DNA of 64,000 bases from an uncultured delta proteobacterium (GTDB taxonomy: Bacteria; Desulfobacterota; WTBG01; JAGOGO01): assembly GCA_963727835.1 (NCBI GenBank), contig CAVSIB010000016.1, positions 20,511 to 84,510 of the forward strand, read 5' to 3'. The notes below the pieces were generated by a model, which saw only the letters and a list, made by a program, of their open reading frames with translations, had not been told where the DNA came from and made no database searches. Every line of letters starts with the position of its first letter. Positions within the stretch are counted from its first letter, which is position 1. The position numbers and the translations under genes were made by a program. Positions 8,015-27,254 of the stretch are shown here, piece by piece.

Positions 8015-8911
8015 GTGAAGCGATTTTATTATTTTATTAAAAAAGCTTTTCAAAACTTAAGACACTTTTTTCTTATCAACCTTATTACTGTTGGCATCAT
8101 CAGCCTTTCTTTGCTAGTGCTCAGCACCTTTTTTATGGTATTTTTAAACCTCCAAACTTACCTGAATAAATGGAAGGACCAAATCCAGGTTTCCGTTTAC
8201 TTGGCGGATAGCAATACGCCTGAAGATATTCCTTTAATCCAAAAAAAAATAAACTCATTTCCACAGGTGAAAAAATTGTCCCTTATCACCAAAGAAGAAG
8301 CGCTCAGTTTTTTTAAAGACAGCTTTCCCGGACAAAAGAAGGCGTTAGAAAGTTTGAAAGATAATCCTCTTCCTGCTTCAATGGATATTCAACTGCAGGA
8401 TGAGTATCGAGGTCCTGAGGAAGTAAAATTTTTTGCCCTCCAGATTAAAAAAATACCCGGCGTTGAAGACGTGGAGTATGGTCAAACCTGGATTGAGGGG
8501 TATGCAAATTTTCTAAGATTCATGCGATCAGCAGGATTAGCAGTGGGAGTTGTTATTTTGCTGGCCACAATCTTTATTATCTCCAATACCATAAAACTTA
8601 CGCTTTTTGCCCGAAAAGATGAGATCGAGATAATGAAACTCGTAGGCGCAACCAATTTTTTTATAAGAGTCCCTTTCTTTCTGGAGGGAATTCTCCAAGG
8701 TCTCTTGGGCGCTTTTTTTGCACTCATTGTCCTGTTCGTTTCCTATCAACTCTTTAGCAACTGGATCGCCCAATCATCGTATTTCTCGTTAAAATTTTTT
8801 AAAATATTTTTTCTTCCGCTTCCTTACCTTCTTCTTATTACTGCGGTGGGGGTGGCAACAGGATTCTTGGGGAGTTTTTTCTCTTTGGGCAGATATTTAA
8901 AGTATGAATAA
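8015..8911 (+). CDS. ftsX: Cell-division permease FtsX
   Basis: N-terminal TM helix, periplasmic domain, then three C-terminal TM helices. Position after ftsE. Confidence 0.85.
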   Translation: MKRFYYFIKKAFQNLRHFFLINLITVGIISLSLLVLSTFFMVFLNLQTYLNKWKDQIQVSVYLADSNTPEDIPLIQKKINSFPQVKKLSLITKEEALSFFKDSFPGQKKALESLKDNPLPASMDIQLQDEYRGPEEVKFFALQIKKIPGVEDVEYGQTWIEGYANFLRFMRSAGLAVGVVILLATIFIISNTIKLTLFARKDEIEIMKLVGATNFFIRVPFFLEGILQGLLGAFFALIVLFVSYQLFSNWIAQSSYFSLKFFKIFFLPLPYLLLITAVGVATGFLGSFFSLGRYLKYE

Positions 8912-10079
8912 AAAGTTATTGTTTTTTTTAGCGTTAGTCTTTTCTGGTTTTTTTGCCCTTTCTGGAGACTTAAAAGCTGAGGAAAAAAAAGCACCTAAGG
9001 AAAAAAATGAATTAAAAGAGATTCAAAAAAAAATTGAAGCTAAACAGGCCCGAATCAAAAAAGCTGAAAAAACGGAAGAAAAAGTCATTTCTGATTTAGA
9101 CGACATCGAAGAAGTGCTTTCCCAAAAACAACAAGAACTTAAACATTATGGGGTCAACTTAAAAAATCAGGAGAAAAAGATTACTGCTTTAAATCAGGAA
9201 ATTGACAAACTAAAGGCAGAAATAATTCAAGAGGAAAGGTTTTTGGCTGATCGGGTAAAGGTTCTTTACCAACTGGGACGCTTGAGTTTTTCAAAAGCAA
9301 TTTTTTCTTCTGAGTCTTTTTCTACATTGATGCGACGGTATGGTTACCTAACCCGATTAATTGATTATAATGTGGGCACAATTAATGATTATTCCCAAAA
9401 ACTCGATCTGCTCCAACACGACAAACAAAGACTCAAGGAGACCGAAAATGCACTGGAAGTTTTGACCCAACAAACCCGTTCCGTTCAGAAAACAATTCTT
9501 AACCATCAAGAAGAAAAAACTAGTTTATTAGTCAGGGTCAGATCGGAAAAGCAACTCCAGCTTAAGGCGCTCGAAGAACTTAAGCAGGCTTCCCAACGGC
9601 TCCAGAGATTGATTGATAAGTTGGATAAGCAAAAAGCCATAACGTCTCTTCCTTCTGAAAAGTTTCCCTCGGAATACCCTTTTTCCTTACGGGGAAAGCT
9701 CGATTTCCCCGTGGAGGGCAAAGTCATTACTTTCTTTGGCGAGCATGAAGACCAAGAATTTGCCACCGTCTCTTTCAATAAGGGAATTGAAATAACTGCC
9801 CGACTCGGAAGCCCGATAAAGGCAGTCTTAAAGGGTACTGTTATTTATTCCGGGTGGTTTAAAGGTTACGGAAATATTATTATCATTGATCATGGTGCTG
9901 GGCTTTATACCCTTTCTGGTCATGTTTCCGAGCTTTTAAAACCGGTGGGCACCCCAGTGAAAACCGGAGAGACAATCGCCCTTGTGGGTGATACTGGATC
10001 GCTTAAGGGCTCTAACCTTTACTTTGAAATTAGGCACCACGGCCAGCCCTTAAATCCGCTGGAGTGGTTAAAAAAATAA
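8904..10079 (+). CDS. envC: EnvC-like murein hydrolase activator (coiled coil + degenerate M23/LytM domain)
   Basis: Signal peptide, long K/E/Q-rich coiled coil, and a C-terminal LytM domain (IIIDHGAGLYTLSGH...LYFEIRHHGQPLNPLEWL) lacking the HxH metal motif, as in EnvC. Encoded directly after ftsEX. Confidence 0.8.
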   Translation: MNKKLLFFLALVFSGFFALSGDLKAEEKKAPKEKNELKEIQKKIEAKQARIKKAEKTEEKVISDLDDIEEVLSQKQQELKHYGVNLKNQEKKITALNQEIDKLKAEIIQEERFLADRVKVLYQLGRLSFSKAIFSSESFSTLMRRYGYLTRLIDYNVGTINDYSQKLDLLQHDKQRLKETENALEVLTQQTRSVQKTILNHQEEKTSLLVRVRSEKQLQLKALEELKQASQRLQRLIDKLDKQKAITSLPSEKFPSEYPFSLRGKLDFPVEGKVITFFGEHEDQEFATVSFNKGIEITARLGSPIKAVLKGTVIYSGWFKGYGNIIIIDHGAGLYTLSGHVSELLKPVGTPVKTGETIALVGDTGSLKGSNLYFEIRHHGQPLNPLEWLKK

Positions 10080-12759: not shown

Positions 12760-13059
12760 CTAAAGAACCTTCGTAATCTCCCTTTTGGTTCTTCCTTTAA
12801 ATTGAGAGCTGAAAGAAGGCACATCTCCCATATTTTCGTCAAGGTAACAGCGCACAACTCGATGCATGGGGAAAAAAACGGTGGTGGGAAAAATGATGGT
12901 TGTCGGTTGTCTTTGGGTAAACTGCTTCGTCCAGTCGCTAAACGAGTTTACATCCACTCCCTTAATGGTAATCCCAGAAGGTGAAATGCTAAGGAGTTTT
13001 CCGACGATCTTTTCTTTCGGGTCCTGGAGATTGAGGATTATTATGCTTCCGTTTTCCAT
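12760..13059 (-). CDS. Hypothetical protein, possibly a non-canonical PilZ-like domain
   Basis: 99 aa. The motif LSISPSGITIKG resembles the PilZ D/NxSxxG motif, but the N-terminal RxxxR is absent. Co-oriented with and directly upstream of the MshEN-like ORF. Confidence 0.35.
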   Translation of the reverse strand: MENGSIIILNLQDPKEKIVGKLLSISPSGITIKGVDVNSFSDWTKQFTQRQPTTIIFPTTVFFPMHRVVRCYLDENMGDVPSFSSQFKGRTKREITKVL

Positions 13060-13242
13060 GTTTGCTTTTTTATTGCAAAAGTACCTCTTGCTGCCCTTTT
13101 AACGAAAGGAATTGAATTTTTTCTATCTTAGCAAAAAATCATTATTTGTAAAAAAATTATCTTCCTCTATTTCACATTACCATACAAAAAAAGGATAGAA
13201 ACAATCCCTGTGATTCATTAAAGATATACAACCCATATTGCT

Positions 13243-14233
13243 CTATTCAATATGGTGAAGGATCCTTTGAACCACATGATCATACGTATGGTGTTCATGA
13301 ACATAGTGATATCCTTCTCTGCTAATCCTTTCTCTTTCCTCATCTTTTTTGAGATATTCAGCAATAAGATTGAGGCACTCCTCAACACTATGATACCAAA
13401 CCAGATGCTTTTTATTGATAAAAATTTTTTCCAGACCCGGAACATAGCGGGTAAGGAGAAACCCCCCGCACCCCAACGTTATCCAGGTTCGGTTGGAGAA
13501 GTATCCTTCTACCTGATACGGACACATCAATGCCCAAAATTATTTTTGTCCCTGAACAAATCCTTGCAAATTCATCCGGATAGACATTGCGCTTATGACA
13601 TTTTAATCCGTGCCTTTTCCACCTCCCCCCCCAAACTTTGAGGTTAAAATGTTTAACAACCTCCTTTATAAGGTTAATCCTCTCACGCCCCTCAGCTCCG
13701 CCGATAAAAGCCACGTCGCTTTTCCATTTCTTACTTTTACTTTTAATAATTCGGTGCGCTTCTCGATCGCATCCCTGAGTAATGAAAATAGGGTTTTTTA
13801 TCCCCTGCTCCTTCAAAAAAGAAATCTGCCCCTGGTTAGTAATAAAAAAATAGTCGACTAATTTCCCCCGTTCAATCATCTCTTCTTTATAAGGAGTAAT
13901 AAACTCCGAAAACTCGCTACTATCAGAAAGAGCTATTAAGTCCGGAAGGTAAATGGCAACCTTGGTCTTCCTGGCGATCTGGGACAACATCTTAAATGGG
14001 ATATCAATACTATTGATAAAAACCAATTGAGGTTGGAAACGATTCAAGGTGGAAAAAAGATATTTTTCCGTAAGCCATTTTCCCCAGCGCCGCTCTATCC
14101 TTCGATAATTGATAGCGCGCACTGTGATGCCCTGGTTACGAAAGGCTTTTATGAAAAATGAGGTGGTTTGGGTGCGTTTTCGTGTCTTTCCAAAAAAAAG
14201 AAGCCGGTTAATTTTTTCGGACATGGTTAACAT
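13243..14233 (-). CDS. CgeB-like glycosyltransferase (DUF3880 + glycosyl transferases group 1), one frameshift
   Basis: N-terminal part (13412-14233) and C-terminal part (13243-13530: GGFLLTRYVPGLEKIF...EEERERISREGYHYV..HTYDHVVQRIL) overlap in different frames. A C6/G6 run at 13462-13467 lies in the overlap. The C-terminus matches the CgeB/spore-maturation GT family. Confidence 0.7.
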
Positions 14234-17043
14234 CTCTGTCCAGCAATCATTTTTTGATAAACTTTAATATTGCCTTCAACCATACCATCAGCGCTAAACT
14301 TTTCCACGACCTTCATTCTGCCTTCTTTTGCCATTTCCTTGGCTTTATCATAGTTATTTAAGGTCCAGATGATCCCATGAGCCAAAGCATCCGGATCAGC
14401 AGGCGGAACCAGAAGGCCTGTTTCTTCATGAGTAATAATTTCAGGAATCCCACCAACACGAGTGGCGACAACCGGAACATCTAAAGCAAGGGCGTCGATA
14501 ATTGTAGTACAAAAGCCTTCATCCAGACTCGAAAACACCGATACAGTAAAAATGTTCATAAACACACCCACATCATCGCGAAAACCTGTAAAAGTTATGT
14601 TTTTGGCTAAACCTAAACGTGAGGTAATTTCTTTTAATTCATTTTCAAGTTCCCCTTTGCCAATGATAAAAAGATGAGCCTGCGGAAATTTTTTTACCAC
14701 TTTCTCCATTGCCTCGATAAGCCATCTTTGCCCTTTGACTTCCAGCAGATTGGCCACATTTCCGAGAATTGGAATACCGGGTGGCAAAGAGAATTCACGG
14801 AAGACACAATCCCCCTTGAGTCCCTGATAGCAATCCATATCTGTGCCGCTATGCACTACCGATATCTTTTTCAATGGGATGCCATCTTTGGTAAGCACAT
14901 CTTTAATACTCTGCGACACCGCAATGATATGGTCGATACATTTTGTGTACTTAATAACATTCAATCCCAAAAAATTGTGTCGAAAGATACTGAAATTTAC
15001 TCGGCGGGTAACAATACGTATCGGTGGTTTTTTCAGAAAGCACGATGCCCACGCCACCAGAGCCTGCGCATGGGGAGTATGGCAATGAATTATATCATAG
15101 TTTTCTTTTTTTATTTTCAGGGCAAGCTTAAAAGCAGCGAAAAAATCTATTTCTCCTCTCATCTTAAGGGGAAAAGTGATAATGCTTTTCTGAAGAGCGC
15201 GTTGGTAGAGACTTCCATCAGGTTGGCAGATCAGGTGTGCAAAATGGCCACGATTATTGAGCCCCTCCATGAGATACATCACTTGCCGCTCTCCCCCTCC
15301 CATGGATAACTCAGAATTGATGTGGAGAATTTTAAGAAAACGGTCTCCGATAGAGGGGGGATGTTTTCTCTTAAAACTCACACCATATTGGGCTTGTTTG
15401 AAGGCGTTTGTACTGGAGCTGCAGATGGTTAAAATTCGACGGTAGATTGTTTTTCTCTGTTTGCGGGTCCATTTATTTTTTTCACTGTAATCTTTAAAAA
15501 ATTTAATTCGGTCAGAAGGAGATAGGCATTGCTCAATCGTAGCATTGAGTTGAGCGAAGTTTTTAATCCGGTGAGAAAGCGAAACCCCTTTGCCAAAATA
15601 TACCCGGTCAGTATCTACGATTAAGCATTCCCACTCTTTTTCTCCCTTTTCTTTAATCAAAAAATTGTCCGACTTTAAGTCACCATGATAAATCCTTTTC
15701 TGATGAAGGGTCCGAATAAAAATCGCCATAAAAGAAATGAAAGCCCTTTTCTTTTGAAAAACTTCGGGATTGGAGGGAGCTTTAAAAATTTGGACATAGT
15801 AGCGAAGGGGAATCGCACCTTCCGCGTATTCCATAATTAAAAAGCTTCTCATCCGAACACCCAATCTCTTCTCTTCAAGAAGAGCTAAGCCACGGGGAGT
15901 GGGAATTTTTTTGATAATTAATTTATTACTATTAGCCCAGGATCGCCGGTTTCGTAACTGCGCTATCAAAAACCGAAACGAAAACCGCAACGCGTCGTTT
16001 CTACCTTCTTTCACGAGAAAGGTCTGACCTTTTATATCAATTTTCGTGACAATAGCTTTGCGGGAAGTTTTGAGAATAGCGGGAGAAAGTTGATCACAAC
16101 GGGGATGAATAATTCCCCGGATGGGCGTGGTAATCTCCTCATGCTCCTTAAGAATATCCGGAATAAGTTTAGGGTCGAATTCCCAGCGATAAATTAAAAA
16201 CTTCCCCTTCCCTTTAATAATGTTAAAAAATTTACCTGTCCGGAAGCTTTTTCTTCCCCAGCTGAGGAATCTTTGGTCCCTTAGTTTTTTGATCTGGGAA
16301 AAAATTTTTTTAGTCATGGAATTGAGTTTTTCCTCAGAAAAATCATCTTCGGAGTAATAAAGCCGGATAAACTTTTCTTGATCATTCGGTCCAAAAAGAT
16401 TTACTTCAGAAATGTCAAAAATGAGAAGAGCAAGGTTAAGCATTTTTTCTTTTTCGCTCGGGTTTCTCTTAATTCGCGTTTTATATAAGTCAACAAGAAA
16501 AAAAGCGAGCGGGTCTACCCGCTCGCTTGGGACGATAATGTTTTCAAGGTGGATATCATGATGAAGGATACCTTTATGGTGAAGCAACCGCAGGTACGTG
16601 GCTAATAATTTTATAAAGGTTTCTTTTTCAAGGTCGTTTTTTATATTCTCCTTATAAAATCTATGTAAATCTATCATTTCTCCCAAAGACTGAGTTATGA
16701 GAAATGCTTCCTTTAAAAACCCAAACTTTCGGTTGATTCCCAAGGCCACAGGATAGGGTATAGAGATATCCAGCCCCATTAACTGATTCATGATTCGCCA
16801 TTCAGTAAAAATTTTTCTGGGAAGGAAAAAATATTTCGCGGTGGTTTCCCAACCCTTAATTTTAATATGTTTGACAAAAAAAGATCCCTTCCCCTCAAGC
16901 TCCAATTTCTTCACCGTTCTTCGAGGCTTATCCTTTTTAACCTCACCTTTTCCCCTCATAAATTCCGAGACCAAATACTCCATGTCCTGAGGGTTGAGGT
17001 AAGGGAAAAGCTGCTTATTAATCTGCCAGTTGATGTGATTCAT
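14227..17043 (-). CDS. Tri-domain fusion: two lipopolysaccharide kinase (Kdo/WaaP-family, protein-kinase-like) domains + C-terminal GT4 (GT-B) glycosyltransferase
   Basis: 938 aa. Domain 1 (~aa 40-260) has catalytic loop HHDIHLENIIV and DLY. Domain 2 (~aa 380-560) has HGDLKSDNFLI...VDTD. The C-terminal ~370 aa is a GT4 glycosyltransferase with the EX7E-type motif EGFCTTIIDALALDVPVVATRVGGIPEI. The start overlaps the stop of the CgeB-like GT (ATG..TGA). Confidence 0.8.
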   Translation of the reverse strand: MNHINWQINKQLFPYLNPQDMEYLVSEFMRGKGEVKKDKPRRTVKKLELEGKGSFFVKHIKIKGWETTAKYFFLPRKIFTEWRIMNQLMGLDISIPYPVALGINRKFGFLKEAFLITQSLGEMIDLHRFYKENIKNDLEKETFIKLLATYLRLLHHKGILHHDIHLENIIVPSERVDPLAFFLVDLYKTRIKRNPSEKEKMLNLALLIFDISEVNLFGPNDQEKFIRLYYSEDDFSEEKLNSMTKKIFSQIKKLRDQRFLSWGRKSFRTGKFFNIIKGKGKFLIYRWEFDPKLIPDILKEHEEITTPIRGIIHPRCDQLSPAILKTSRKAIVTKIDIKGQTFLVKEGRNDALRFSFRFLIAQLRNRRSWANSNKLIIKKIPTPRGLALLEEKRLGVRMRSFLIMEYAEGAIPLRYYVQIFKAPSNPEVFQKKRAFISFMAIFIRTLHQKRIYHGDLKSDNFLIKEKGEKEWECLIVDTDRVYFGKGVSLSHRIKNFAQLNATIEQCLSPSDRIKFFKDYSEKNKWTRKQRKTIYRRILTICSSSTNAFKQAQYGVSFKRKHPPSIGDRFLKILHINSELSMGGGERQVMYLMEGLNNRGHFAHLICQPDGSLYQRALQKSIITFPLKMRGEIDFFAAFKLALKIKKENYDIIHCHTPHAQALVAWASCFLKKPPIRIVTRRVNFSIFRHNFLGLNVIKYTKCIDHIIAVSQSIKDVLTKDGIPLKKISVVHSGTDMDCYQGLKGDCVFREFSLPPGIPILGNVANLLEVKGQRWLIEAMEKVVKKFPQAHLFIIGKGELENELKEITSRLGLAKNITFTGFRDDVGVFMNIFTVSVFSSLDEGFCTTIIDALALDVPVVATRVGGIPEIITHEETGLLVPPADPDALAHGIIWTLNNYDKAKEMAKEGRMKVVEKFSADGMVEGNIKVYQKMIAGQRC

Positions 17044-17061: not shown

Positions 17062-17310
17062 TCAATAGGTAACGTATGATTCCCTTTTAGAGATTATCAA
17101 ATAATAGGTTGCTTCTTTATAATACTTTATGGGATAGACTTCAAGATTTTTTGGAGAGAGGCCTTGTGAAATTTGAGTAAATTCTTTCTGCGACGTTAGG
17201 CAGGCATGGGGTTCATATTTTTTAGTCAGAAAATTTACAACGTCCGATTCGCCAGAAAACTTTGGAGCCACTGTATCCAAATAAAAATCGATTAAAATCG
17301 CTTTTCCCAA
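17062..17310 (-). CDS. Hypothetical small protein (82 aa), TTG start
   Basis: ORF 18 nt upstream of, and co-directional with, the kinase-GT fusion gene. No recognisable domain and a weak RBS. Confidence 0.3.
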   Translation of the reverse strand: MGKAILIDFYLDTVAPKFSGESDVVNFLTKKYEPHACLTSQKEFTQISQGLSPKNLEVYPIKYYKEATYYLIISKRESYVTY

Positions 17311-17650: not shown

Positions 17651-17962
17651 TTAGCCTTCCTTCTTACGAAAAATGAGAACCAGATTCCGAATATAAACAA
17701 AGGCCCCCGCGCCTTGTCCAAGGATAAAGACAGCATCGCGGATATAAATCGCATACGCAAGTAAGATAAGTCCCCCGGCTAAGCTGAAATACCAGAAAGA
17801 AACAGGCACGACAGTCTCCCCTTTCCGTTCCGAGGCAATCCACTGCACCAGAAACCTCATAAAAAACAAAGCTTGTCCAACATATCCGATAACGCTCCAC
17901 CTATCCATTTTCATGCAAGACAAAGTTTGTCCAATATATCCGATAATGTTCCACCTATTCAT
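17651..17962 (-). CDS. Lipid-A-disaccharide synthase N-terminal domain (LAB_N) family small membrane protein; 5' end carries an in-frame 54-bp tandem duplication
   Basis: MDRWSVIGYVGQALFFMRFLVQWIASER...FWYFSLAGGLILLAYAIYIRDAVFILGQ matches the LAB_N family. It is preceded by a degenerate duplicate MNRWNIIGYIGQTLSCMK. The likely native start is the second Met (~17908). Confidence 0.75.
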   Translation of the reverse strand: MNRWNIIGYIGQTLSCMKMDRWSVIGYVGQALFFMRFLVQWIASERKGETVVPVSFWYFSLAGGLILLAYAIYIRDAVFILGQGAGAFVYIRNLVLIFRKKEG

Positions 17963-17963
17963 T
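17866..17963 (-). repeat. 54-bp in-frame tandem duplication (2 copies, ~89% identical) covering the start codon region of the LAB_N gene
   Basis: acaaagcttgtccaacatatccgataacgctccacctatccatt (17866-17909) versus acaaagtttgtccaatatatccgataatgttccacctattcatt (17920-17963). Period 54 nt = 18 codons. Confidence 0.8.
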
Positions 17964-18330
17964 CAACACCTCCCTAACGATCTTTTAGGTCCCTCCTCAG
18001 GGAATTAATGCGGTCAAAAAATATCCAAAGCCCAAGGGCAATAAAAAGTTAAAAATAATAAAATTAATACTCTCTTTTGTCAAACGCTCACTTGTTTTCG
18101 AAAATATAATGTAAAAAGCCACTCAACCGCACTGGAAAAAACGGCAAACCCAAGCAATTGATTACTGGGGTTAGTTTTTGTTACGCTCCTTCGCCCCTAT
18201 CTACCGTTAAAACCCAAGCAAAGCATCGGGGAAATAGCCCCTCAGAAATAACTTCTTATCAGGTATTACCTTTCAAAAAAAATATACTGCTACGCTACGC
18301 GGTTACCTTCCTTGGCTCGGTACGCCTTTA

Positions 18331-19989
18331 TTATTTTTCCTGAGGATCATCATAGAATTGGGCAAATACGAAGCCGCGGTCACTATCCACAAACGCTGGT
18401 TGTGGAAGCTGGAGCTTATCGTCCCTATAGCGTTTTTCGCGGGTAATAAGCGTTATACGTCGAGAAGGTTGCGAAACCAGCTCCCGAAACTGATCAAGGC
18501 TAAATAAACGGTTCTTCTCGGGTGCGCGAGATACTCCGTAGTCGAGTTCTCCGGGTTTGCCGAGCAGGCATACGTCGCTTCGCTTATAAAACCAGCAAAC
18601 CGCAGACACGAGGTAGTTATCAGAAACCAAGGTCGTGTCCGGGCTTATCCTGTCTGTATGACGCAGTAAAAACTCACCCGGGACGAGATCATCTTTAAAT
18701 CTATCCGGCATGGCAACGTGCGAGATCAGCATGAGCAACAAGGGTCCAAGACAAAACAAGACAAGTTTTTGCTTAACATCCGAGGTTGCCGCGGCAACCA
18801 TAAAAAACACCGTCCAAGTCACAAGTCCCAAAAATAGGAAAACAAGTTTCCAGATTTCACCTGGCTCAAAAATTTTCCAATCCGGCGAAACCGGTAGCAC
18901 CTGACTGAGAAGCAGGCCGACTGCGCATAATCCCATTACCACCGCCAAAAAAAATGCGCCAATTGTTACCCATTTTGTTTCCTTTTTGAGGTAGTCAAGA
19001 AGACCCGCAGTAATAAGAATTACCAGAGGCTGAAAACAGGGGAGGATGTAAGTGCCGAGCTTGCCCCGTGAGGCGGAGAGGAACAAGAAAGGAAAGAGTA
19101 ACCAGCAGAAGGCAAACCGGAGAAGTGAATCCTTGAGAGCTCTCTCCTTGAGGCCTGAAAATGCAGCCGGAATGAATACCGTCCAGGGCAGCCCGCCCAG
19201 AAACAACAAGGGAATAAAGTAGTAGAAAGGCTGCGGATGCTGTGCGTCCTCTGACATAAACCGTTTGATGTGTTCTACCCAAAAAAAGTAGTGCCAGAAA
19301 TCAGGCTCCCGTTGATGGATTATCACGCTCCAAGGCAAAGCAACAAGGAGAGCAGCCACAAGGGGTACCCAGCAAATCCTGACAAGTTCCTGCCATCGGC
19401 GTTCCCAGATCATAAACGGCACAATCGTCATTACTGGTATCGCAAAAGCAAGAAATCCCTTGGCAAGGAACGCGAGACCGCAGAAGACTCCGAAAATCAC
19501 CAGAAAGCCAATCTTTCTCCCGGCCTGCTTCTCACTATGGGCAAAAAAGAAAGAAACCATCGCGCCAGCCAAAAATAGGGAAAATATGCTATCTAAAACA
19601 TTGAAACATCCAACCCCGAAGACTTCCATAGAGGTAAGAAAAACTGCAGCAGTGCTGATGCCTGCTAAAGATCCGCCTCCGAACTTTCGGACGAGCAAAA
19701 AAAGCAGTAGCGCAGACATGCCCATGGTGAGAGCGGACGGCAGACGCACCGCAAAGGCGTTTTGGCCAAAAAGAAACATCGCGGCTGCATTAAACCAATA
19801 TCCCATCACCGGTTTTTCAAAATACCGGAGTCCATCAAGATGGGGCACAACCCAATCTCCCGAAACGAGCATCTCCCGGGGAATCTCAGCGTACCGGGTC
19901 TCGTCGGGGAGGACGATCGGTCGAAGGCCGAGCGGCACGATGTAAATCAAAATAAAAAGTCCGATTACAACAAGAGATAATTTTTTCAT
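18331..19989 (-). CDS. arnT: Undecaprenyl-phosphate-alpha-L-Ara4N : lipid A arabinosyltransferase ArnT (GT83)
   Basis: 552 aa. N-terminus PDETRYAEIPREMLVSGDWVVPHLDGLRYFEKP and the internal QREPDFWHYFFWVEHIKRF are near-identical to the E. coli ArnT signature regions. ~12 TM helices plus a C-terminal periplasmic domain. Confidence 0.9.
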   Translation of the reverse strand: MKKLSLVVIGLFILIYIVPLGLRPIVLPDETRYAEIPREMLVSGDWVVPHLDGLRYFEKPVMGYWFNAAAMFLFGQNAFAVRLPSALTMGMSALLLFLLVRKFGGGSLAGISTAAVFLTSMEVFGVGCFNVLDSIFSLFLAGAMVSFFFAHSEKQAGRKIGFLVIFGVFCGLAFLAKGFLAFAIPVMTIVPFMIWERRWQELVRICWVPLVAALLVALPWSVIIHQREPDFWHYFFWVEHIKRFMSEDAQHPQPFYYFIPLLFLGGLPWTVFIPAAFSGLKERALKDSLLRFAFCWLLFPFLFLSASRGKLGTYILPCFQPLVILITAGLLDYLKKETKWVTIGAFFLAVVMGLCAVGLLLSQVLPVSPDWKIFEPGEIWKLVFLFLGLVTWTVFFMVAAATSDVKQKLVLFCLGPLLLMLISHVAMPDRFKDDLVPGEFLLRHTDRISPDTTLVSDNYLVSAVCWFYKRSDVCLLGKPGELDYGVSRAPEKNRLFSLDQFRELVSQPSRRITLITREKRYRDDKLQLPQPAFVDSDRGFVFAQFYDDPQEK

Positions 19990-20086
19990 TGGTTATTTTT
20001 TGTTGCCAGCGGGAACTGCGTTAACGCCTGAAAGGAGTATCGGCCTATGCGGATTTTGGGTGAACTTTTCGCAGCGTTCACATCTT

Positions 20087-20473
20087 TTACCCACTTCGGG
20101 TGATCAGAAAAACTCCACAACAAATGACAAGAATGCCCATCCACCGTGCAAAACCAAGAACCTCTCCAAAAAAAATTTGTCCTACTAATGCAGTCACGAT
20201 ATACCCTACGCTTAACAGCGGATACGCATAACTTACATCCACCCGAGACAGAACCATGAGCCACACAACGATACTAAAAGCATAGCACGCCATACCCAGG
20301 AGGATATGCGGATTAAGTGCCACCTTCAGCCCAACCGATATAAAGTTTTTTGCGACAAAAGAAAACGGCCCAATGGCTCGCATTCCTTGCTTGAGAAAAA
20401 GTTGGGCTGAGGCATTCAAAAGCACACCACATAAGGCCAACGGAAGATAGCGATTCATAGGGTATCCTCGCAA
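20087..20473 (-). CDS. arnF: ArnE/ArnF-family (SMR/EamA-like, 4-TM) Und-P-Ara4N flippase subunit
   Basis: 128 aa with four hydrophobic helices, similar in size and pattern to E. coli ArnF. Located between arnD and arnT. Only one such subunit is present in the locus. Confidence 0.75.
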   Translation of the reverse strand: MRGYPMNRYLPLALCGVLLNASAQLFLKQGMRAIGPFSFVAKNFISVGLKVALNPHILLGMACYAFSIVVWLMVLSRVDVSYAYPLLSVGYIVTALVGQIFFGEVLGFARWMGILVICCGVFLITRSG

Positions 20474-20479
20474 TTTATA

Positions 20480-21400
20480 TTAAGATACTGTTGCCTGGCA
20501 AGAAACCCATCCCTCACGGCCAGGAATTGTTTTGGGAATCATGGGAGAACATTCATACTGGGAAGCATCAGCAAGCAAACCTCCTAAGGGGCTAAACGTG
20601 GCCCCCTGGGATTGGGCTTGTTTCAAAAACTGCTCAAACATCTTAAGACAGATCATTCCTTCTACTTCCGCGTGAATGGTCAACACATTAAGCCCATGGG
20701 GTTGCAGTAGAGAAAGAATATACTCATTGTAATTGTGGTTTGAAATCCCCTTACGTCCAATAACTTCATCATACGTTGGTAAGGTAACGGGAATTTGGGG
20801 TTGGGAAAGTGTTATTCCATTCACCAGGGGGAAAAATATGCTTTTCCCCCGGCAGTCACTGTTGTAGGTAAAAGGAAATGTGGCTTTCTCCTTTAAGACC
20901 TGATCGTTACATTTCCATCCCGGAACCGCAGAACATGATGGTGGCCGGTCCACAATCGCGGTAAGCAATGCGATACCTCTTTTAAACGTATCATGGATGA
21001 CATCACTGCTCATGTTGTGAAGATACCTCTGCCATGCGTAATGATCCCAGGAATGAAAGCCAATTTCATGGCCTGCCCCTGCTGTCGCTCGAATAAGAGG
21101 CCCCAATTTTTCCCCAATAACTGGTCCCGGCCAGAACACCCCCTTGAGAAGGATATCCCACCCATACAGTTTCGTTGCCTGGGAACGCAGCATCTTTTTT
21201 AAAAATGCGGGACGAAACAATCGCCACAGATGACGCCCCATATTATCCGGCCCCACAGAAAAAAAGAATGAGGCGGTGATACCGAACTCCGCTAAAAGTT
21301 TACCTAGACTGGGCACGCCGAAACGGGTACCTCTAAAGGTGTCAACGTCAATGCGCAGGCCTATCTTCATGGCATCGTGATTATAACGGCTCATTCGCAA
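20480..21400 (-). CDS. arnD: 4-deoxy-4-formamido-L-arabinose-phosphoundecaprenol deformylase ArnD
   Basis: KIGLRIDVDTFRGTRFGVPSLGKLL...SFFFSVGPDNMGRHLWRL...GWDILLKG...NSDCRG...IPVTLPTYDEVIG...TIHAEVEG is collinear with E. coli ArnD (polysaccharide deacetylase fold). Confidence 0.92.
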   Translation of the reverse strand: MRMSRYNHDAMKIGLRIDVDTFRGTRFGVPSLGKLLAEFGITASFFFSVGPDNMGRHLWRLFRPAFLKKMLRSQATKLYGWDILLKGVFWPGPVIGEKLGPLIRATAGAGHEIGFHSWDHYAWQRYLHNMSSDVIHDTFKRGIALLTAIVDRPPSCSAVPGWKCNDQVLKEKATFPFTYNSDCRGKSIFFPLVNGITLSQPQIPVTLPTYDEVIGRKGISNHNYNEYILSLLQPHGLNVLTIHAEVEGMICLKMFEQFLKQAQSQGATFSPLGGLLADASQYECSPMIPKTIPGREGWVSCQATVS

Positions 21401-23404
21401 TCACTGGTTGTCTTCATGGTATCGACCAGAGCCGATAGCTTCCCGCAAGAAAAAATCGAGGGTTTGCTCTACCGATTGCTCAAGCTCTATCGAAGGTTCC
21501 CACTGCAAGAGCTGCTTGGCTTTCCGAATGCTTGGTCTTCGGTGTTGCAGATCCTGATAACCACTTCCATAATATACTGAGCTTTCTACCTCCTGAAAAC
21601 CGGCAAATGGCGGGAAGTTTGACCGAAGGGGATGTTTTTCAAATTTTTTCACCAACATCTCTCCCAGCGCTTTGATGCTCGCCTCATTATCCGGGTTGCC
21701 AATATTGATGATCTGCCCATCACAACAGTGGTTAGGATTTTCGATAATGCGAAACAAGCATTCGATCCCGTCGGAAATATCGGTAAAACAACGTTTCTGA
21801 TTTCCGCCGTCAATGAGCTTAATCGGTGTTCCTTCTACCAGGTTAAGGATGAGTTGGGTAATAGCGCGAGAACTCCCGATCCGTGCCGAGTTCAAGCTGT
21901 CCAAGCGCGGCCCGATCCAATTAAAAGGACGAAAAAGTGTAAAATGAAGCCCTTCCTGCTGACCGTATGCCCAGATAACCCGGTCAAGCAATTGCTTGCT
22001 GCAGGAATATATCCAGCGCTGCATGCGGATGGGGCCTAACACTAATTTCGAAGTATCTTCATTAAACTCGCCTTCATCGCACATGCCATAAACTTCAGAC
22101 GTTGAGGGGAAAATAATCCGTTTTTTATATTTTACACAGTATCGGACAACTCTCAGATTTTGTTCAAAATCGAGTTCAAAAACTTGGAGTGGTCTGCGCG
22201 TATATTCGATGGGTGTGGCGATGGCCACGAGCGGGATGACTATATCGCATTTTTTTATGTGGTACTCGATCCATTCGCGGTGAATGGCAATATCCCCTTC
22301 ATGAAAGTAAAATCCTGGTTTTCCCAAAAAACGTTGGATAGAGTTGGATTGGAGGTCTAACCCGTGTACTTCATAGTTTCCGTTATCCAGAAGCTTTTCA
22401 CTTAAGGCGTTACCGATAAAACCATCCATTCCTAAAATGAGAATTTTTTTCTTTTTTACCATCTCGATGTATTTGCTAGTAGAAAGTCCAAAGGTCATCC
22501 CCTCAACAAGATTGAATTCACGGGCAAGCTGAGTGCCACCCATGTAAATACCATTTTCAGCCTGGCCGAAATCAACACGGATGGCGCCTTTCCCGCACTG
22601 AATCACCAAAGGATCAAGAGAAATAATGGTGCCGGGATTCGCTTTTTTTTCATAATCCGGCATTTCAGTAACCATCCAAAAAAAACATTTGCGGTCACCG
22701 ATATAGCTGAATGCGCCCGGATAAGGAATGGTCACCGCCCGCACCAGATTTTTTACCTGGGAGGCCGTGGCAGCCCAGTTGATTTCACCGTCTTTGGGCC
22801 TGCGTCCGCCATAATAGGTTGCCTGAGAATGCTCCTGAGGTTGGCGCGTTACCGTTCTTTTTTTTATCTGGGGAAGAATTTCATCGAGCAATTGGCGCGA
22901 AGCCACAACCATTTTTTCGTAAAGCGACCGCGCAGTGTCATAATCAGAAATTGGGATTCGCTTCTGACCGACAATGTCTCCATCGTCAGCCCGGGGAGTC
23001 ATGTAATGAAGCGTAACCCCGGTTTCTTTCTCACCGTTGATCAGCACCCAGTTTATCGGACAACGTCCACGGTACTTGGGAAGGAGCGATCCGTGAAGAT
23101 TGAAGCATCCCGCAGGTGGGATGTTAAGGATAGGAGGACGTATAAGGTAGCGGTAATAGAAAGAAAAAATAATATCCGGCGCGAGTTCTTGAATCTTTTT
23201 TACCCAGAGGGGGTGATTGATATCATCGGGTGCATAAACGAGAAGATTATGGCTCGCAGCGCATTCGGTAACCGAATTAAACCAAAGGTTTTCATGAGGA
23301 TCATCCTTATGGGTAAAAACCGCAGCAATCTCGAACCCGTTTCGCACCAGGGCTTCAATGCCAGCACAGCCGATGTTATGATAGGCAAAAACTACAGCTT
23401 TCAT
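21401..23404 (-). CDS. arnA: Bifunctional UDP-glucuronate decarboxylase / UDP-Ara4N formyltransferase ArnA
   Basis: 667 aa. N-terminal formyltransferase ([13 protein letters not shown]...SFYYRYLI...[33 protein letters not shown]). C-terminal SDR dehydrogenase ([12 protein letters not shown]...[13 protein letters not shown]...[11 protein letters not shown]...[19 protein letters not shown]...[18 protein letters not shown]). Near-collinear with E. coli ArnA. Confidence 0.95.
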
Positions 23405-23484: not shown

Positions 23485-25172
23485 TTATCCTCCTTCTCTT
23501 TTAATCTCCCAAGCCACAAGCTTCTTTTCAGAGTTCTTCTCCCAAGGGAAGATCTTTTCGTTCACGCTCGGTTGCCCCAAGGTTCCGGCAGGAAGCTCTC
23601 GGAACAGATACTTGAGGTCACGACGGGTCGAAATCAGCACTTTGGTGTCTTTCCCTGATCGGAGAAAATTTGTGACTGATTCAGGAGACTTCACTACCCG
23701 CACAAAGCCGGGGACATCCAAATAGAACAGAACAGTGGTCTCGATTTCGCGATAGAACGCGATATCTGTGGGCATGATATTCGTTACCTGGGTTTGTATC
23801 TCCCGAGCAAATGGTTTTTTTGTACGGTAATCTTCAAACCTTACCTGCTGCCAGCAGAAAAAGCCTCCCATGAGAATAGCTGCTGTGGCAACCAAACAAG
23901 CTGCCTTTTGATTGATCCCCGTAACCTTGACCAGCAGGTTGAGACGCCATCTTTTTATAATCCAGGGGGTTAAGGCAAAAAAGCTTACTATGAGCGTAGC
24001 AAGCTTAATACCCCCGGAACTACAAAATCTATGCGTTTTTGAAGAAAGAAGCAAATCGCCGGACTCAAAAACCCAAAAAGTACAATAAGGGCAAAGAGTC
24101 CTTCCTGGATGCCAAGCCCCAAACGTTTCCACCCTTCTTCGCCGACAGTCTTTAAATAAACTGCAACAATTAGAGCGCAGAAGGGGAGGATCGGGAGAAT
24201 GTAGTAACTCCTCCTTGAACCGGAAGCAGTAAACAAGAGAAAAATGAGAAGCGTGGCCTCTACAAGCCACCTAGTTTTGCCATCAAGGTTCTTTATCGAG
24301 GCAGTCGTTCTGAAAATCGCCACGAGAAGTAATGGGGTCCAGGGCAAAAAGAGGACAGGGAGATAATAGAAATACACATAAAAAGGTTCCACATGATCAA
24401 AGGGATGGAAAAAGCGCTGAATATTTTCCTGGAACACCAGGGCAAGTCCAGTTTCCTGATATGATCCTTGGGTCAGGTTAGCATAAATAAATGGAGCCAG
24501 ATAAAGGGCAAGGCCGATAATAAGGGACATAGCGTGGGAAGGCGAAAGGAGTGCCCGCCACCGCCGTTCTCGAAGAACATCCGGCAATAGCGCTACCATT
24601 GGCACTACCACTGCGGTAAGCCCTTTGGTTTGGGCGCCAATAAAGCAAATGAGATAAAAAACGAGATAGGTCAAAAAATTTTCTCTTCCCCGCCAAGTCC
24701 AATACCAGGCGATAGATAGGATGACCGTGGCAAGGTTTTCCATGTCTGCGGTCCCTGACCTTGACCAAAAAAGAAATCCAAATGCAGTAAGAAGAATCCA
24801 GCCGGATGTCCTTCCAGCTTCCTCTGACCATAATCTTCTCCCCAGAAACACTGTTGCCCAAAGCACCATTATGCCTGCAATTGCGCTTGGAAGCCTTACC
24901 GTCCATTCATTGAGTTTGCCCGTGAGGGCAGAGACTAGAGCGATAAGCCAGTAGGTAAGAAGGGGCTTGTCAAAGTAGGGTTCGCCATTGATAGTGGGGT
25001 GGAAGAAATTCCCCGAAAGAAACATCTCTCGGGTGACCTCAGCCCAACGGTCCTCGGAGGCCCAGAGGCCTCGGTTACCAAGTACCCAGAAAAGAAAAAA
25101 CAATGCAACTACCCAAAAGATGATATCCGAAATTCGTATCCGTACCTTTGCTTTTGAGACACTACTATCCAC
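23485..25172 (-). CDS. ArnT/PMT-family (GT83/COG1807) membrane glycosyltransferase, paralog 2; one frameshift
   Basis: N-terminal part (23988-25172) has SEDRWAEVTREMFLSGNFFHPTINGEPYFDKPLLTYW and multiple TM helices. The C-terminal part (23485-24270 frame) continues after a C5/G5 run at 24011-24015: reading ..DFVVPGV then GIKLATLIV.. joins if one G is inserted. Confidence 0.75.
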
Positions 25173-26106
25173 GATGGATCTTCCTCAAGAGGTATGGTGG
25201 TCGCCTCCTAACCGCCTGGAAAATTCTTCCGATGTACTCGCCCAGAACCCCGAGCGCAAAAAGCTGAGCACCGATAAAGCAGAAAAGTACGGCAAAGAGA
25301 GTAAATACTCCTTGTCCCGCCCATTGTGCCCCGTAATAAAATCGGAGAAACAGTATAAGCATCCCAAGCAGGAGACCCAGTATAGCAATCACGGTTCCTA
25401 CAAAGAAAAGAACCCGGAGAGGCAACAGAGAAAACCCAGTCACAAGATCAAGTTGCAAGCTGAAAAGCTTCAGGAGTGAGTACTTTGATTCTCCCGCACA
25501 TCTTTCTTTATGAAGAACAGGGATCTCTATTGGATTTCTCGCAAACAAGGTAGCTAAAGCAGGAATAAATGTCCGGTACTCAGGATTCGCCAGTATCGCT
25601 TCCACAACTTCCCGACTGTAACCCCGAAGCATACAACCGAAATCATCCAGAGATATGCCGGATATTTTTTTTACAAGCTTGTTCGTAAATTTCGATGCCC
25701 ATCTCCTAAAGAACGTATCTTGCCGGTTAATTCGGATGCTTCCCACGAGATCGTGCCCTTTGTTAAAGGCCTCGACTAACTTCGGAATCTCTTCCGGAGG
25801 ATTCTGCAAGTCAGCGTCGAGGGTAACGACAAACTCGCCTCGCGACTCAGCAAATCCAGCCAAAACCGCAGCGTGCTGTCCATAATTTCGGTTTAGCAGG
25901 ATCCCAATGACTTTACCCGGGTTCTGTTCGGCAGCCTCAGTAATAAGTTGGGCAGATCGGTCAATACTGCCATCATCCACCAGAATAATCTCGAAGGTCT
26001 TCCCCAGGTTGTTACAGGCTGTCAAGCAACGGCTGATAAGTTCCTTAAGGTTTGCCTCCTCGTTAAACGCAGGAATAACAACCGATAACAAAGGTGATGC
26101 ACTCAT
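25165..26106 (-). CDS. arnC: Undecaprenyl-phosphate 4-deoxy-4-formamido-L-arabinose transferase ArnC (GT2)
   Basis: LSVVIPAFNEE...IILVDDGS.DRS...NRNYGQHAAVLAGF...VVTLDADLQNPPEEIPKLV...GCMLRGYSR..TFIPALA...ESKYS, plus two C-terminal TM helices. Collinear with E. coli ArnC. Confidence 0.92.
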   Translation of the reverse strand: MSASPLLSVVIPAFNEEANLKELISRCLTACNNLGKTFEIILVDDGSIDRSAQLITEAAEQNPGKVIGILLNRNYGQHAAVLAGFAESRGEFVVTLDADLQNPPEEIPKLVEAFNKGHDLVGSIRINRQDTFFRRWASKFTNKLVKKISGISLDDFGCMLRGYSREVVEAILANPEYRTFIPALATLFARNPIEIPVLHKERCAGESKYSLLKLFSLQLDLVTGFSLLPLRVLFFVGTVIAILGLLLGMLILFLRFYYGAQWAGQGVFTLFAVLFCFIGAQLFALGVLGEYIGRIFQAVRRRPPYLLRKIHRG

Positions 26107-27254
26107 CGCTTTAACACCTCTTTTATTGTATCCACAACCTCATCCACATCTTCACTGGTCATGTCCGGGAAAAGCGGGAGAGAGCAGATCCGGTCGGAGT
26201 TCCACTCTGTGTTCGGCAGCATGCCCCGGCACGTGCCCATTGATTCCCGAAAATATTTTTGAAGGTGAACCGCCCGAAAATGAAGTCCGGTGCCGATATT
26301 TCTCTTTTTTAATTCTTCCATAAACGCATCCCGGGATAGGCCTGCCTTATCAATATTTAAGCGAATAATAAAAAGATTCCAGGAGTGCTTCATCGAATAC
26401 AATGGATCAGAGAGGGGCGTGATTTCATCAAGTTCGACAAGCCGTTCACGGTATCGCAGAGCTAATGCGGTTCGTTTTTTAATCAACTCCTCGAGCCGGG
26501 CCAGTTGTTTCAGTCCCAAAGCAGCAGCAATGTCGGTGAGGTTATACTTATATCCGGGGACAAGAACTTGGGCTTGGGGAGAACGGCCGCGGGTAAAACG
26601 ATCATACGCATCCACGCCCAGCCCGTGGAACTTCAGTTGGCGGATACCCTCCAGAAGCTCGGGGTTGTCCGAACAAAACATACCTCCCTCACCCGTGGTA
26701 ATATTTTTTATGGGGTGAAAAGAAAAAATTGCTGTTCCGGTTTGGCCAATACGGGTATCCTTATACTCAGTTCCCAACGCGTGGGCTGCATCATCAGCAA
26801 GAAAAATATTATTCCGTGCAGCGAGCCGGCGAATAGAATCTATATCCGCAGGAGCCCCAGCAAAATGAACCGGAACAATTAACCGTGTTCGCTCGCTCAG
26901 GCATTCCCTCATTGAATCACCAGATACCATCAACGTGTCCCGTTCAATATCCGCAAACACGGGTTTCGCACCTGCGAGGACAATAAGATTCACCGTAGAA
27001 ACCCAGGTCATTGACGGCGTAATAACCTCATCTCCCGGGCCGATACGTAAAGCGTGCAGCAAAAGATGCATGCCCGCAGTCGCGGAAGTGAGCGCTACCG
27101 CCCCCGAACAACCAACGTACTTGCAGAAATTCTCTTCAAAGTCAGTACATTTCACCCCGGTTGTTATCCATCCTGACCGCAGCACCCCGGCAATGGCGGT
27201 GATATCTTCCTCAGTAATGGAGGGACGCGAAAATGGCAAAAATTCTTTTCTCAT
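26103..27254 (-). CDS. arnB: UDP-4-amino-4-deoxy-L-arabinose--oxoglutarate aminotransferase ArnB (DegT/DnrJ/EryC1 family)
   Basis: EFLPFSRPSITEEDI...GWITTG...SATAGMHLLLHAL.IGPGDEVITPSMTWVSTVN...HFAGAPADID...SFHPIKNIT.GEGG...LKFHGLGVDAYDR...PGYKYNLTDIAAA...NTEWNSDRICSLPLFPDMT. Very close to E. coli ArnB. Confidence 0.95.
   Translation of the reverse strand: MRKEFLPFSRPSITEEDITAIAGVLRSGWITTGVKCTDFEENFCKYVGCSGAVALTSATAGMHLLLHALRIGPGDEVITPSMTWVSTVNLIVLAGAKPVFADIERDTLMVSGDSMRECLSERTRLIVPVHFAGAPADIDSIRRLAARNNIFLADDAAHALGTEYKDTRIGQTGTAIFSFHPIKNITTGEGGMFCSDNPELLEGIRQLKFHGLGVDAYDRFTRGRSPQAQVLVPGYKYNLTDIAAALGLKQLARLEELIKKRTALALRYRERLVELDEITPLSDPLYSMKHSWNLFIIRLNIDKAGLSRDAFMEELKKRNIGTGLHFRAVHLQKYFRESMGTCRGMLPNTEWNSDRICSLPLFPDMTSEDVDEVVDTIKEVLKR

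Follow-up and report, generated by a model that had tools for sequence, protein, structure and literature searches.

A single open reading frame joining two Kdo/WaaP-family kinase domains to a GT4 glycosyltransferase in an uncultured delta proteobacterium

In Escherichia coli, the lipopolysaccharide (LPS) enzymes WaaG, WaaP and later WaaY act in sequence as separate proteins; the WaaG/WaaP/WaaQ/WaaY inner-core sequence brings a glycosyltransferase (GT) of family 4 (GT4) and two kinases of the Kdo family to the same region of the molecule. WaaP (RfaP) of Pseudomonas aeruginosa and E. coli (PDB 6DFL) is a stand-alone protein of ~260 aa that belongs to PF06293, and residues K51, H161, D163 and D188 of the P. 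aeruginosa enzyme are essential (PMC6147952). Sugar-phosphorylating kinases joined to glycan-assembly modules have precedent in ORF6 of Klebsiella pneumoniae O7, a methyltransferase-kinase-coiled coil-GT2-GT2 protein (PMC11231755), and in WbdD of E. coli O9a (PMC11231755, PMC3482155). Here, a 64,000-nt stretch of DNA (the window) from an uncultured delta proteobacterium (GenBank contig CAVSIB010000016.1, positions 20,511 to 84,510) is found to encode a 938-aa protein in which two Kdo/WaaP-family kinase domains are fused to a complete GT4 module. The fusion thus holds in one polypeptide the three module types of the E. coli inner-core enzymes. By contrast, ORF6 and WbdD are of other kinase and GT families, have a single kinase, a coiled-coil ruler and a methyltransferase partner, and act on undecaprenyl-linked O-polysaccharide termini.

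The fusion open reading frame (ORF) is ATG-initiated and runs for 938 codons to a TAA stop with no internal stop codon, as an earlier note on this DNA, made from the letters and a list of ORFs with their translations, had claimed. Against Pfam, the protein matches Kdo (PF06293, E-value 1.6e-32) over two separate stretches, with a weaker Pkinase signal across the second, followed by matches to Glyco_transf_4 (PF13439, 2.4e-24, aa 581-737, 86.7 bits against a cut-off of 28.5) and Glycos_transf_1 (PF00534, 7.2e-38, aa 754-909, 130.2 bits against a cut-off of 26.4). Both kinase halves, each scanned alone against PF06293 with its gathering cut-off of 21.3 bits, and both halves of the GT-B fold are above the Pfam thresholds (Table 1). 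The profile search thus places two Kdo/WaaP kinase domains and a PF13439/PF00534 GT4 in the ORF, and the two motifs from which the note had read the kinases are confirmed (HHDIHLENIIV at aa 161 and HGDLKSDNFLI at aa 453). Its expectation that such kinases and GT4 enzymes usually are separate proteins is likewise supported. The fusion has no predicted transmembrane segments and an isoelectric point (pI) of 9.7 (10.3 for kinase 2), which fits a cytoplasmic enzyme that acts on an anionic membrane-bound substrate. The linker that joins kinase 2 to the GT4 differs by a 4-codon indel in an alignment with the closest orthologues (P0002, P0003 and P0005). An AlphaFold 2 (AF2) model of the full-length protein, built from 13 aligned sequences, is good for the kinases and unusable for the GT4 half (predicted local distance difference test, pLDDT, <50); the GT4 was re-modelled alone with 90 homologues, and the mutual placement of the three modules is not fixed by either model.

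The two kinase domains are 22% identical to one another (E-value 5e-13) and each finds WaaP (6dfl) as its best sequence match in the PDB, with kinase 1 aligned to WaaP residues 26-233. Conservation is judged from an alignment of six fused and seven stand-alone tandem kinases, the latter only ~25% identical. In this set of 13 sequences, K58, E81, H161, D163, N168 and D185 of kinase 1 are invariant, as are K345, H453, D455, K457, N460 and D477 of kinase 2. Kinase 1 carries the complete set of catalytic elements, i.e., the β3 Lys (K58), the αC Glu (E81), the HxD motif (H161/D163) and the metal-binding Asp (D185), at nearly the same positions as K51/E78/H161/D163/D188 of WaaP (PMC6147952). The catalytic Lys and Asp are kept in both domains (K58/D163 and K345/D455), as the alignment shows. 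The fusion differs from WaaP in that N168 and N460 are the canonical kinase Asn, from which WaaP departs according to its description (PMC6147952), and in that the WaaP substrate residues Y165 and H168 correspond to H165 and N168 of kinase 1. The AF2 model of aa 1-545 has a pLDDT mostly of 80-93. In Foldseek searches, the best PDB matches of this kinase region are WaaP (6dfl_A, E-value 1.6e-12) with a template modelling (TM) score, normalized to the target, of 0.64, and the PRPK/Bud32 atypical kinases with TM scores of 0.70-0.74.

Within the coding sequence of kinase 1, a G+C-rich hairpin with a perfect 11-bp stem precedes a T-run on the sense strand (16503-16528, minus strand, codons 172-181). 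The element reads AAGCGAGCGGG-TAGA-CCCGCTCGCTT then TTTTTCTT, has a folding energy of -21 kcal/mol and resembles an intrinsic terminator. In the ~98% identical orthologue of L016, a compensatory change of a G-C to an A-U pair keeps the stem, though one of the two changes is E174K; the stem is not present in more distant orthologues.

In GT4 enzymes, the donor-binding residues that matter are a Gly-rich loop with a Glu, a Lys and an E-x7-E motif. The residues G583-G584-E585, K770, E842, G864-G865 and E868 are invariant in 90 GT4 homologues and all are kept in the fusion, where the E-x7-E motif takes the form E842-x7-D850 with Asp as the second acid throughout the subfamily. The AF2 model of the GT4 alone has a pLDDT of 94.2 and a predicted TM (pTM) score of 0.89. 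Together with the scores of the two Pfam halves, this bears out the reading of the module as a complete GT-B enzyme. The closest folds are retaining GT4 enzymes with TM scores of 0.84-0.88 (7mi0 of Rickettsia, 4xso, 6n1x and 3mbo, with HepE and BshA among the matches). The earlier label 'WaaG-like' is not supported, as no WaaG model is among the best 25 of 46 NCBIfam matches and P. aeruginosa WaaG (8b62) ranks only 49th with a TM score of 0.71, compared to 0.85-0.87 for BshA, HepE and the Rickettsia GT4. Thus, the module is a bona fide GT4 that is not demonstrably WaaG-like. RfaP, KdkA, BshA, stp2, EpsE and other equivalogs of NCBIfam were considered as specific functions of the fusion and rejected, since every score is below its cut-off.

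Orthologous ORFs of 934-956 aa run without interruption in L016, which is of the window's species (98% protein identity), in L001 and L002 (79-80%), in L011/L012 (77%), and more distantly in L013/L014 (59%) and L015 (57%). In L018 (53%) one tblastn alignment spans residues 1-937 of the fusion, and the gene call includes only the last 405 aa owing to a scaffold gap. L001 and L002 are metagenome-assembled genomes labelled uncultured delta proteobacterium and Thermodesulfobacteriota; they are the only true relatives in a scan of genome contigs, of which the other matches (L003-L009) are ordinary GT4 or kinase matches and were not used. When HMMER is run exhaustively against 1.84 billion representatives of 50%-identity clusters, a single full-length match is obtained (P0005, 1229 bits), and the remaining matches are stand-alone or multi-GT4 proteins. 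When the kinase half is re-scanned over the 166 retrieved proteins, the kinase is noted only in the fused clade, the stand-alone tandem kinases, one 261-aa sequence with kinase 1 only, and P0048. The kinase-kinase-GT4 architecture is therefore confined to one narrow clade of a few uncultured relatives of sulfate reducers. Consistent with the suspicion of the note that this architecture is uncharacterised, full-text literature searches turn up no description of LPS kinases in tandem or of kinase-GT4 fusions, and one fused member carries the automatic NCBI name 'lipopolysaccharide kinase InaA family protein, partial'. Literature matches to 'tandem kinase' are plant immune receptors and were set aside as irrelevant.

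All three modules are of known families, and neither the tandem kinase nor the joining of a GT4 to an LPS kinase is new as a kind. Stand-alone tandem Kdo-Kdo kinases of ~530-570 aa (P0008-P0014, P0168 and L017 9447-11117) occur in other uncultured bacteria, align end to end with the kinases of the fusion and have the catalytic residues invariant. By contrast to the fusion, these proteins are ~26% identical, have no fused GT4 and are missing an ~11-residue insertion at ~aa 312-322 of the fused proteins. The uncharacterised P0048 (648 aa) is, like the fusion, a single polypeptide with a GT4 (aa 14-350) joined to a Kdo-family kinase (aa 470-613), but is distant (kinase E-value 7e-11), has one kinase and is of reversed GT4-kinase order.

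The GT4 module has a history distinct from that of the kinases. In windows of 100 nt, DNA identity to L001 is ~87-100% across most of arnT, both kinases and the downstream gene, and falls to 59-79% in a block that nearly coincides with the GT4 (Table 1), with a conserved island at 14331-14395; further dips to 59-82% are within arnT and around the LAB_N gene. At the protein level, the kinases are 91% and 89% identical to P0002 compared to 64-65% for the GT4, which is no closer to P0002 than to orthologues with kinases only 52-60% identical. The synonymous divergence (dS) is 0.16-0.22 in the kinases and a saturated 2.07-2.35 in the GT4, where the ratio of non-synonymous to synonymous divergence (ω) is ~0.1. 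Thus, the GT4 module alone is replaced, with import of a long-diverged functional allele as the only explanation of the dS and ω pattern. In P0169, a fragment of 472 aa, the GT4 is 85% identical to that of the window and the kinase 2 tail only 66%; by this pattern, a fused homologue that is more distant represents the donor type. Divergence of the GT4 in situ by relaxed or positive selection was considered and rejected, since dS jumps more than 10-fold at sharp boundaries with ω near 0.1, and since the distant lineage of P0169 has the same allele class. At 15 positions with a conservation of 90% or more, the allele class of the window and P0169 departs from the other 88 homologues in the alignment. 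Its differences cluster in the first Gly-rich loop (TExTWRGGEQQ to SELSMGGGERQ, aa 577-586; P0002 is of the TWRGGEQQ class), and the GT4 specificity of this class may reasonably be expected to be altered. The swap of the GT4 alone indicates that domains inside a fused envelope enzyme are exchangeable like O-antigen cassettes; it is a small, concrete case of modular surface-glycan evolution in uncultured anaerobes and overturns no principle. By the Nei-Gojobori method, ω is 0.1-0.5 in all three modules, and the fusion is under purifying selection.

Relatives carry the fusion as the central gene of a conserved triad with short gaps or overlaps, in which it is preceded by a GT-C paralogue of ArnT (PMT2, ~553 aa) and followed by a CgeB-like GT with a Glyco_trans_1_2 domain (317-329 aa). 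The triad is present in L002, L011, L012, L013, L015 and L018; in L011 both partners are intact, with PMT2 at 8203-9864 and the CgeB-like gene at 12808-13797. In L017, which shares its metagenome sample with L018, the parts are separate genes of one cluster, with a stand-alone GT4 that is 60% identical to the GT4 of the window (as close as the GT4 modules of fused orthologues), a 556-aa tandem Kdo-Kdo kinase with an abutting PMT_2 GT-C, a sulfotransferase, a GT2, a single Kdo kinase and a GT1_2-like gene. The operons of other stand-alone tandem kinases also encode GT4 or GT1 glycosyltransferases and, in many cases, a PMT_2 GT-C; P0009 is encoded beside two GT9 (heptosyltransferase-family) and four GT4 genes, and two further tandem kinases are flanked by GT-B genes. 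The clustering of the unfused parts in L017 and the GT genes beside tandem kinases indicate that the fused modules belong to one pathway. The fusion thus serves as a Rosetta stone that links the tandem-kinase family, the large deltaproteobacterial family of stand-alone GT4 proteins, the CgeB-like GT and the ArnT paralogue to a single pathway, with testable functional hypotheses for all four.

The sulfotransferase gene is noted at 13875-14735 in L011, 10514-11374 in L012 and 4963-5790 in L017 and is absent from the window, a hint that the glycan is perhaps sulfated in those lineages. A 551-aa gene 5' of the fusion of L002 was read as arnT and is instead the ArnT paralogue PMT2 by tblastn.

That the fusion is an LPS-core enzyme of cytoplasmic core assembly and phosphorylation is, on the basis of domain families and gene context, about an even proposition. 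The GT9 neighbours, the ArnT-like partner and the adjacency of the arn genes point to lipid A-core as the target, and family membership and gene neighbourhood suggest the inner core or lipid A as the acceptor. The fusion would be a soluble, strongly basic enzyme of the cytoplasm, peripheral to the inner membrane on its cytoplasmic side, with a lipid-linked glycan (nascent lipid A-core being the most likely) as its substrate. As a retaining GT-B enzyme, the C-terminal GT4 would add one sugar from a nucleotide sugar to the lipid-linked core acceptor; the two WaaP-family kinase domains would, with ATP, transfer phosphate to hydroxyl groups on sugars of this acceptor, and the CgeB-like GT encoded by the abutting gene may add a further residue. 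In most relatives, the periplasmic ArnT paralogue would then modify the product, possibly on the new phosphate(s), as ArnT does on the phosphates of lipid A. If so, one polypeptide performs a glycosylation and one or two LPS-core phosphorylations for which textbook systems use three proteins. Core phosphates govern outer-membrane stability and cationic-peptide resistance, and the adjacency to arn fits a combined charge-remodelling locus.

Several points weigh against an LPS-core role. The kinase family (Kdo) includes members with unknown or non-LPS functions, and the scores of the fusion for the RfaP (NF011703, 95.2 bits against a cut-off of 170) and KdkA (NF002475, 77.7 bits against a cut-off of 142) equivalogs mark its kinases as family members that are orthologues of neither. 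A WaaG model is absent among the best 25 of 46 NCBIfam matches. The modules belong to their families at the level of Pfam and fold, and none of the orthologue-level models (WaaP, KdkA, WaaG) is matched above its cut-off. No heptosyltransferase or Kdo transferase genes are found among the window ORFs scanned (~4.2-34.6 kb). In addition, two of the three conserved partners of the triad (PMT2 and the CgeB-like gene) are broken in the window, and in this lineage the pathway may have changed or be in partial decay. Finally, kinase 2 has no αC glutamate, with S368 opposite E78 of WaaP in a phmmer alignment, and this domain may be weak or inactive.

The last of these points raises the alternative that only one kinase is catalytic, with kinase 2 as a degenerate scaffold, acceptor-binding or allosteric module that positions kinase 1 and the GT4. 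This arrangement is compatible with either an LPS or a non-LPS target and is considered rather unlikely. In its favor, the stand-alone tandem homologues have Ser, Gly or Ala at the site of WaaP E78, the predicted αC helix of kinase 2 (aa 356-377) includes no acidic residue in the fusion, the two kinases have diverged to the low identity given above, and the E78A variant of WaaP is strongly impaired with a 128-fold shift in the minimum inhibitory concentration of EDTA (PMC6147952). However, WaaP E78A still supported growth (PMC6147952), and the invariance of K345, H453, D455, K457, N460 and D477 at ~25% overall identity is hard to explain without catalysis. The ω of kinase 2 also argues for constraint, at 0.33-0.39 between close orthologues, 0.46 compared to L016, and 0.15-0.17 in saturated distant pairs. 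Kinase 2 is thus probably catalytic but atypical, as judged from its residues, and the double phosphorylation of the acceptor proposed by the earlier note is plausible.

A second alternative is that the same enzyme acts on a non-LPS glycoconjugate. Examples would be a capsule or exopolysaccharide, a phosphoglycolipid, and a glycoprotein whose synthesis involves a PMT-family GT-C. In this scheme, the kinases would place phosphate on a polymer in the manner of WbdD or K. pneumoniae O7 ORF6 at O-polysaccharide termini. The best NCBIfam matches of the GT4 (stp2 of the PEP-CTERM type, BshA and EpsE) are of exopolysaccharide or small-molecule types and not core enzymes, genes characteristic of polysaccharide clusters (sulfotransferase, methyltransferase and GT2) are present in relatives, and PMT-family enzymes, to which there are Pfam PMT matches, also glycosylate proteins. 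A kinase and a GT in a single polypeptide are moreover known for O-polysaccharide termination (PMC11231755). By contrast, the best matches of the kinase domains are to the LPS-kinase family and WaaP, PMT2 has no named relative other than ArnT (its sole NCBIfam match, with 93 bits and below cut-off), the arn genes adjoin the locus, and a tandem kinase is encoded beside genes of the GT9 heptosyltransferase family. No coiled-coil ruler, ABC transporter or Wzx/Wzy genes are noted beside the fusion in the loci read. A non-LPS target is therefore regarded as unlikely. An artefact that merges separate kinase and GT4 genes, or a decaying pseudogene, for which the broken genes nearby could be cited (the frameshift at 13521, the deleted PMT2 and the frameshifted PMT paralogue near 30300), is very unlikely and is dismissed because the same continuous ORF occurs in at least seven independent assemblies from different samples with intact orthologues down to 53% identity, all 938 codons are free of stops, ω is well below 1 in every module (0.10-0.11 in the imported GT4), and every family-invariant residue is kept.

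With an LPS-core role retained as the preferred reading, a broader proposal can be framed in which the tandem kinase, the GT4, the CgeB-like GT and the ArnT paralogue form an undescribed route of envelope-glycan modification in Thermodesulfobacteriota. In the cytoplasm, a core sugar would be built and phosphorylated twice (or pyrophosphorylated) by the fused enzyme, the ArnT paralogue would cap the phosphate(s) with a sugar in the periplasm, and exchange between lineages of the GT4 cassette, which lies between conserved kinase and downstream-gene sequence, would vary the surface structure and amount to serotype switching inside one gene. As a whole, this proposal is speculative and doubtful. 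The exchange of the GT4 and the loss of the ArnT paralogue suggest that the glycan of the window lineage differs from that of its sister lineages.

Table 1. Positions of the fusion, its modules and the surrounding genes in the window (aa, residues of the fusion protein).
Feature	Residues (aa)	Position	Strand	Basis
Kinase-kinase-GT4 fusion coding sequence	938 aa	14227-17043	minus	ORF translation, Pfam, full-length orthologues, dN/dS
Kinase domain 1, Kdo/WaaP family	1-262	16258-17043	minus	PF06293 65.7 bits; K58, E81, H161-H-D163, N168, D185
Kinase domain 2, Kdo/WaaP family	263-545	15409-16257	minus	PF06293 53.5 bits; K345, H453-G-D455-L-K457-x-x-N460, D477; S368 at αC Glu site
Basic low-confidence linker, kinase 2/GT4	546-570	15334-15408	minus	pI 10.45; pLDDT <50 for aa 542-567
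GT4 module, GT-B fold	571-938	14230-15333	minus	PF13439 and PF00534; AF2; Foldseek; invariant columns
Recombinant GT4 block		14236-15320	minus	Sliding DNA identity, per-domain identity, dS
CgeB-like Glyco_trans_1_2 gene, 3' of fusion		13243-14224	minus	DNA alignment with L001/L002; PF13524 7e-29 on intact orthologue
PMT2 (ArnT-paralogue GT-C) remnant, last 75 codons		17080-17304	minus	tblastn with L011 PMT2
LAB_N small membrane protein gene, between arnT and fusion locus		17651-17962	minus	PF07578 7e-31; conserved in L011, L012
arnT, last gene of canonical Ara4N cluster		18331-19989	minus	NCBIfam 519 bits, top match, below cut-off 567
arnE/F		19986-20473	minus	Pfam EamA-type matches only
arnD		20480-21400	minus	NCBIfam 397 bits, above cut-off 382
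arnA		21401-23404	minus	NCBIfam 1099 bits, above cut-off 777
arnC		25165-26106	minus	NCBIfam 417 bits, top match, below cut-off 529
arnB		26103-27254	minus	NCBIfam 574 bits, top match, below cut-off 631

The fusion is on the same strand as, and downstream of, a cluster for 4-amino-4-deoxy-L-arabinose (Ara4N) modification (Table 1), and its placement by the note at the distal end of the Ara4N operon is imprecise. Membership in that operon is not supported. The 1.29-kb gap that separates arnT from the fusion includes, in order, a promoter-like site, the LAB_N gene, a terminator-like hairpin and the 225-nt remnant of a gene. The promoter-like site upstream of LAB_N (18083-18055) is σ70-like with matches at 11 of 12 positions, and the hairpin downstream of LAB_N is at 17588-17552. 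The fusion protein is not homologous to any Arn protein, and in relatives the fusion has its own triad and is preceded by the second GT-C gene, not arnT.

The gene remnant upstream of the fusion matches residues 479-553 of the PMT2 of L011 with 84% identity by tblastn. The deletion junction is near 17308, with ~1.3 kb missing compared to L001. In L016 (1-840), PMT2 retains residues 2-182 (frameshifted) and 470-553, is missing residues ~183-469, and has 446 nt more than in the window. The PMT2 remnants of the window and L016 are thus two stages in the progressive decay of one gene within a species-level lineage and not an assembly error.

Downstream, the translational coupling that the note had proposed between the fusion and the CgeB-like gene stands as abutment, with the TAA of the fusion at 14227-14229 and the ATG of the CgeB-like gene at 14224 or 14233. 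An intact partner is not found in the window, as a 1-nt insertion near 13521, private to the window, breaks the frame; protein identity is 89% up to the frameshift. The gene is intact (326-329 aa) in L016, L001, L002, L011 and L013. Either a sequencing error or a recent inactivation of the gene could account for the insertion.

Other GT-C genes of the window are also of note. Four ArnT-like GT-C genes, including arnT and one at 27365-29158, are present in addition to the deleted PMT2. An extra PMT_2-family gene between arnC and arnA (23485-25172, minus strand) is in the form of two overlapping ORFs (394 and 261 aa), and no gene is present at this site in L011. Similarly, a PMT_2/ArnT-like gene at 29393-30981 (minus strand) is in two overlapping ORFs and is apparently frameshifted, since tblastn with ArnT changes frame near 30300. 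In L001 (5757-9967), arnT and PMT2 are split into several ORFs by frameshifts and the 934-aa fusion ORF is intact; these frameshifts are possibly indel errors of assembly, which makes the record unsuited to judging pseudogenes. The 5' end of the LAB_N gene (17805-18003) has an apparent short duplication in the N-terminus (NRWNIIGYIGQTL / DRWSVIGYVGQAL); DNA identity to L001 drops to ~60% with indels in this region, and the true start codon is uncertain.

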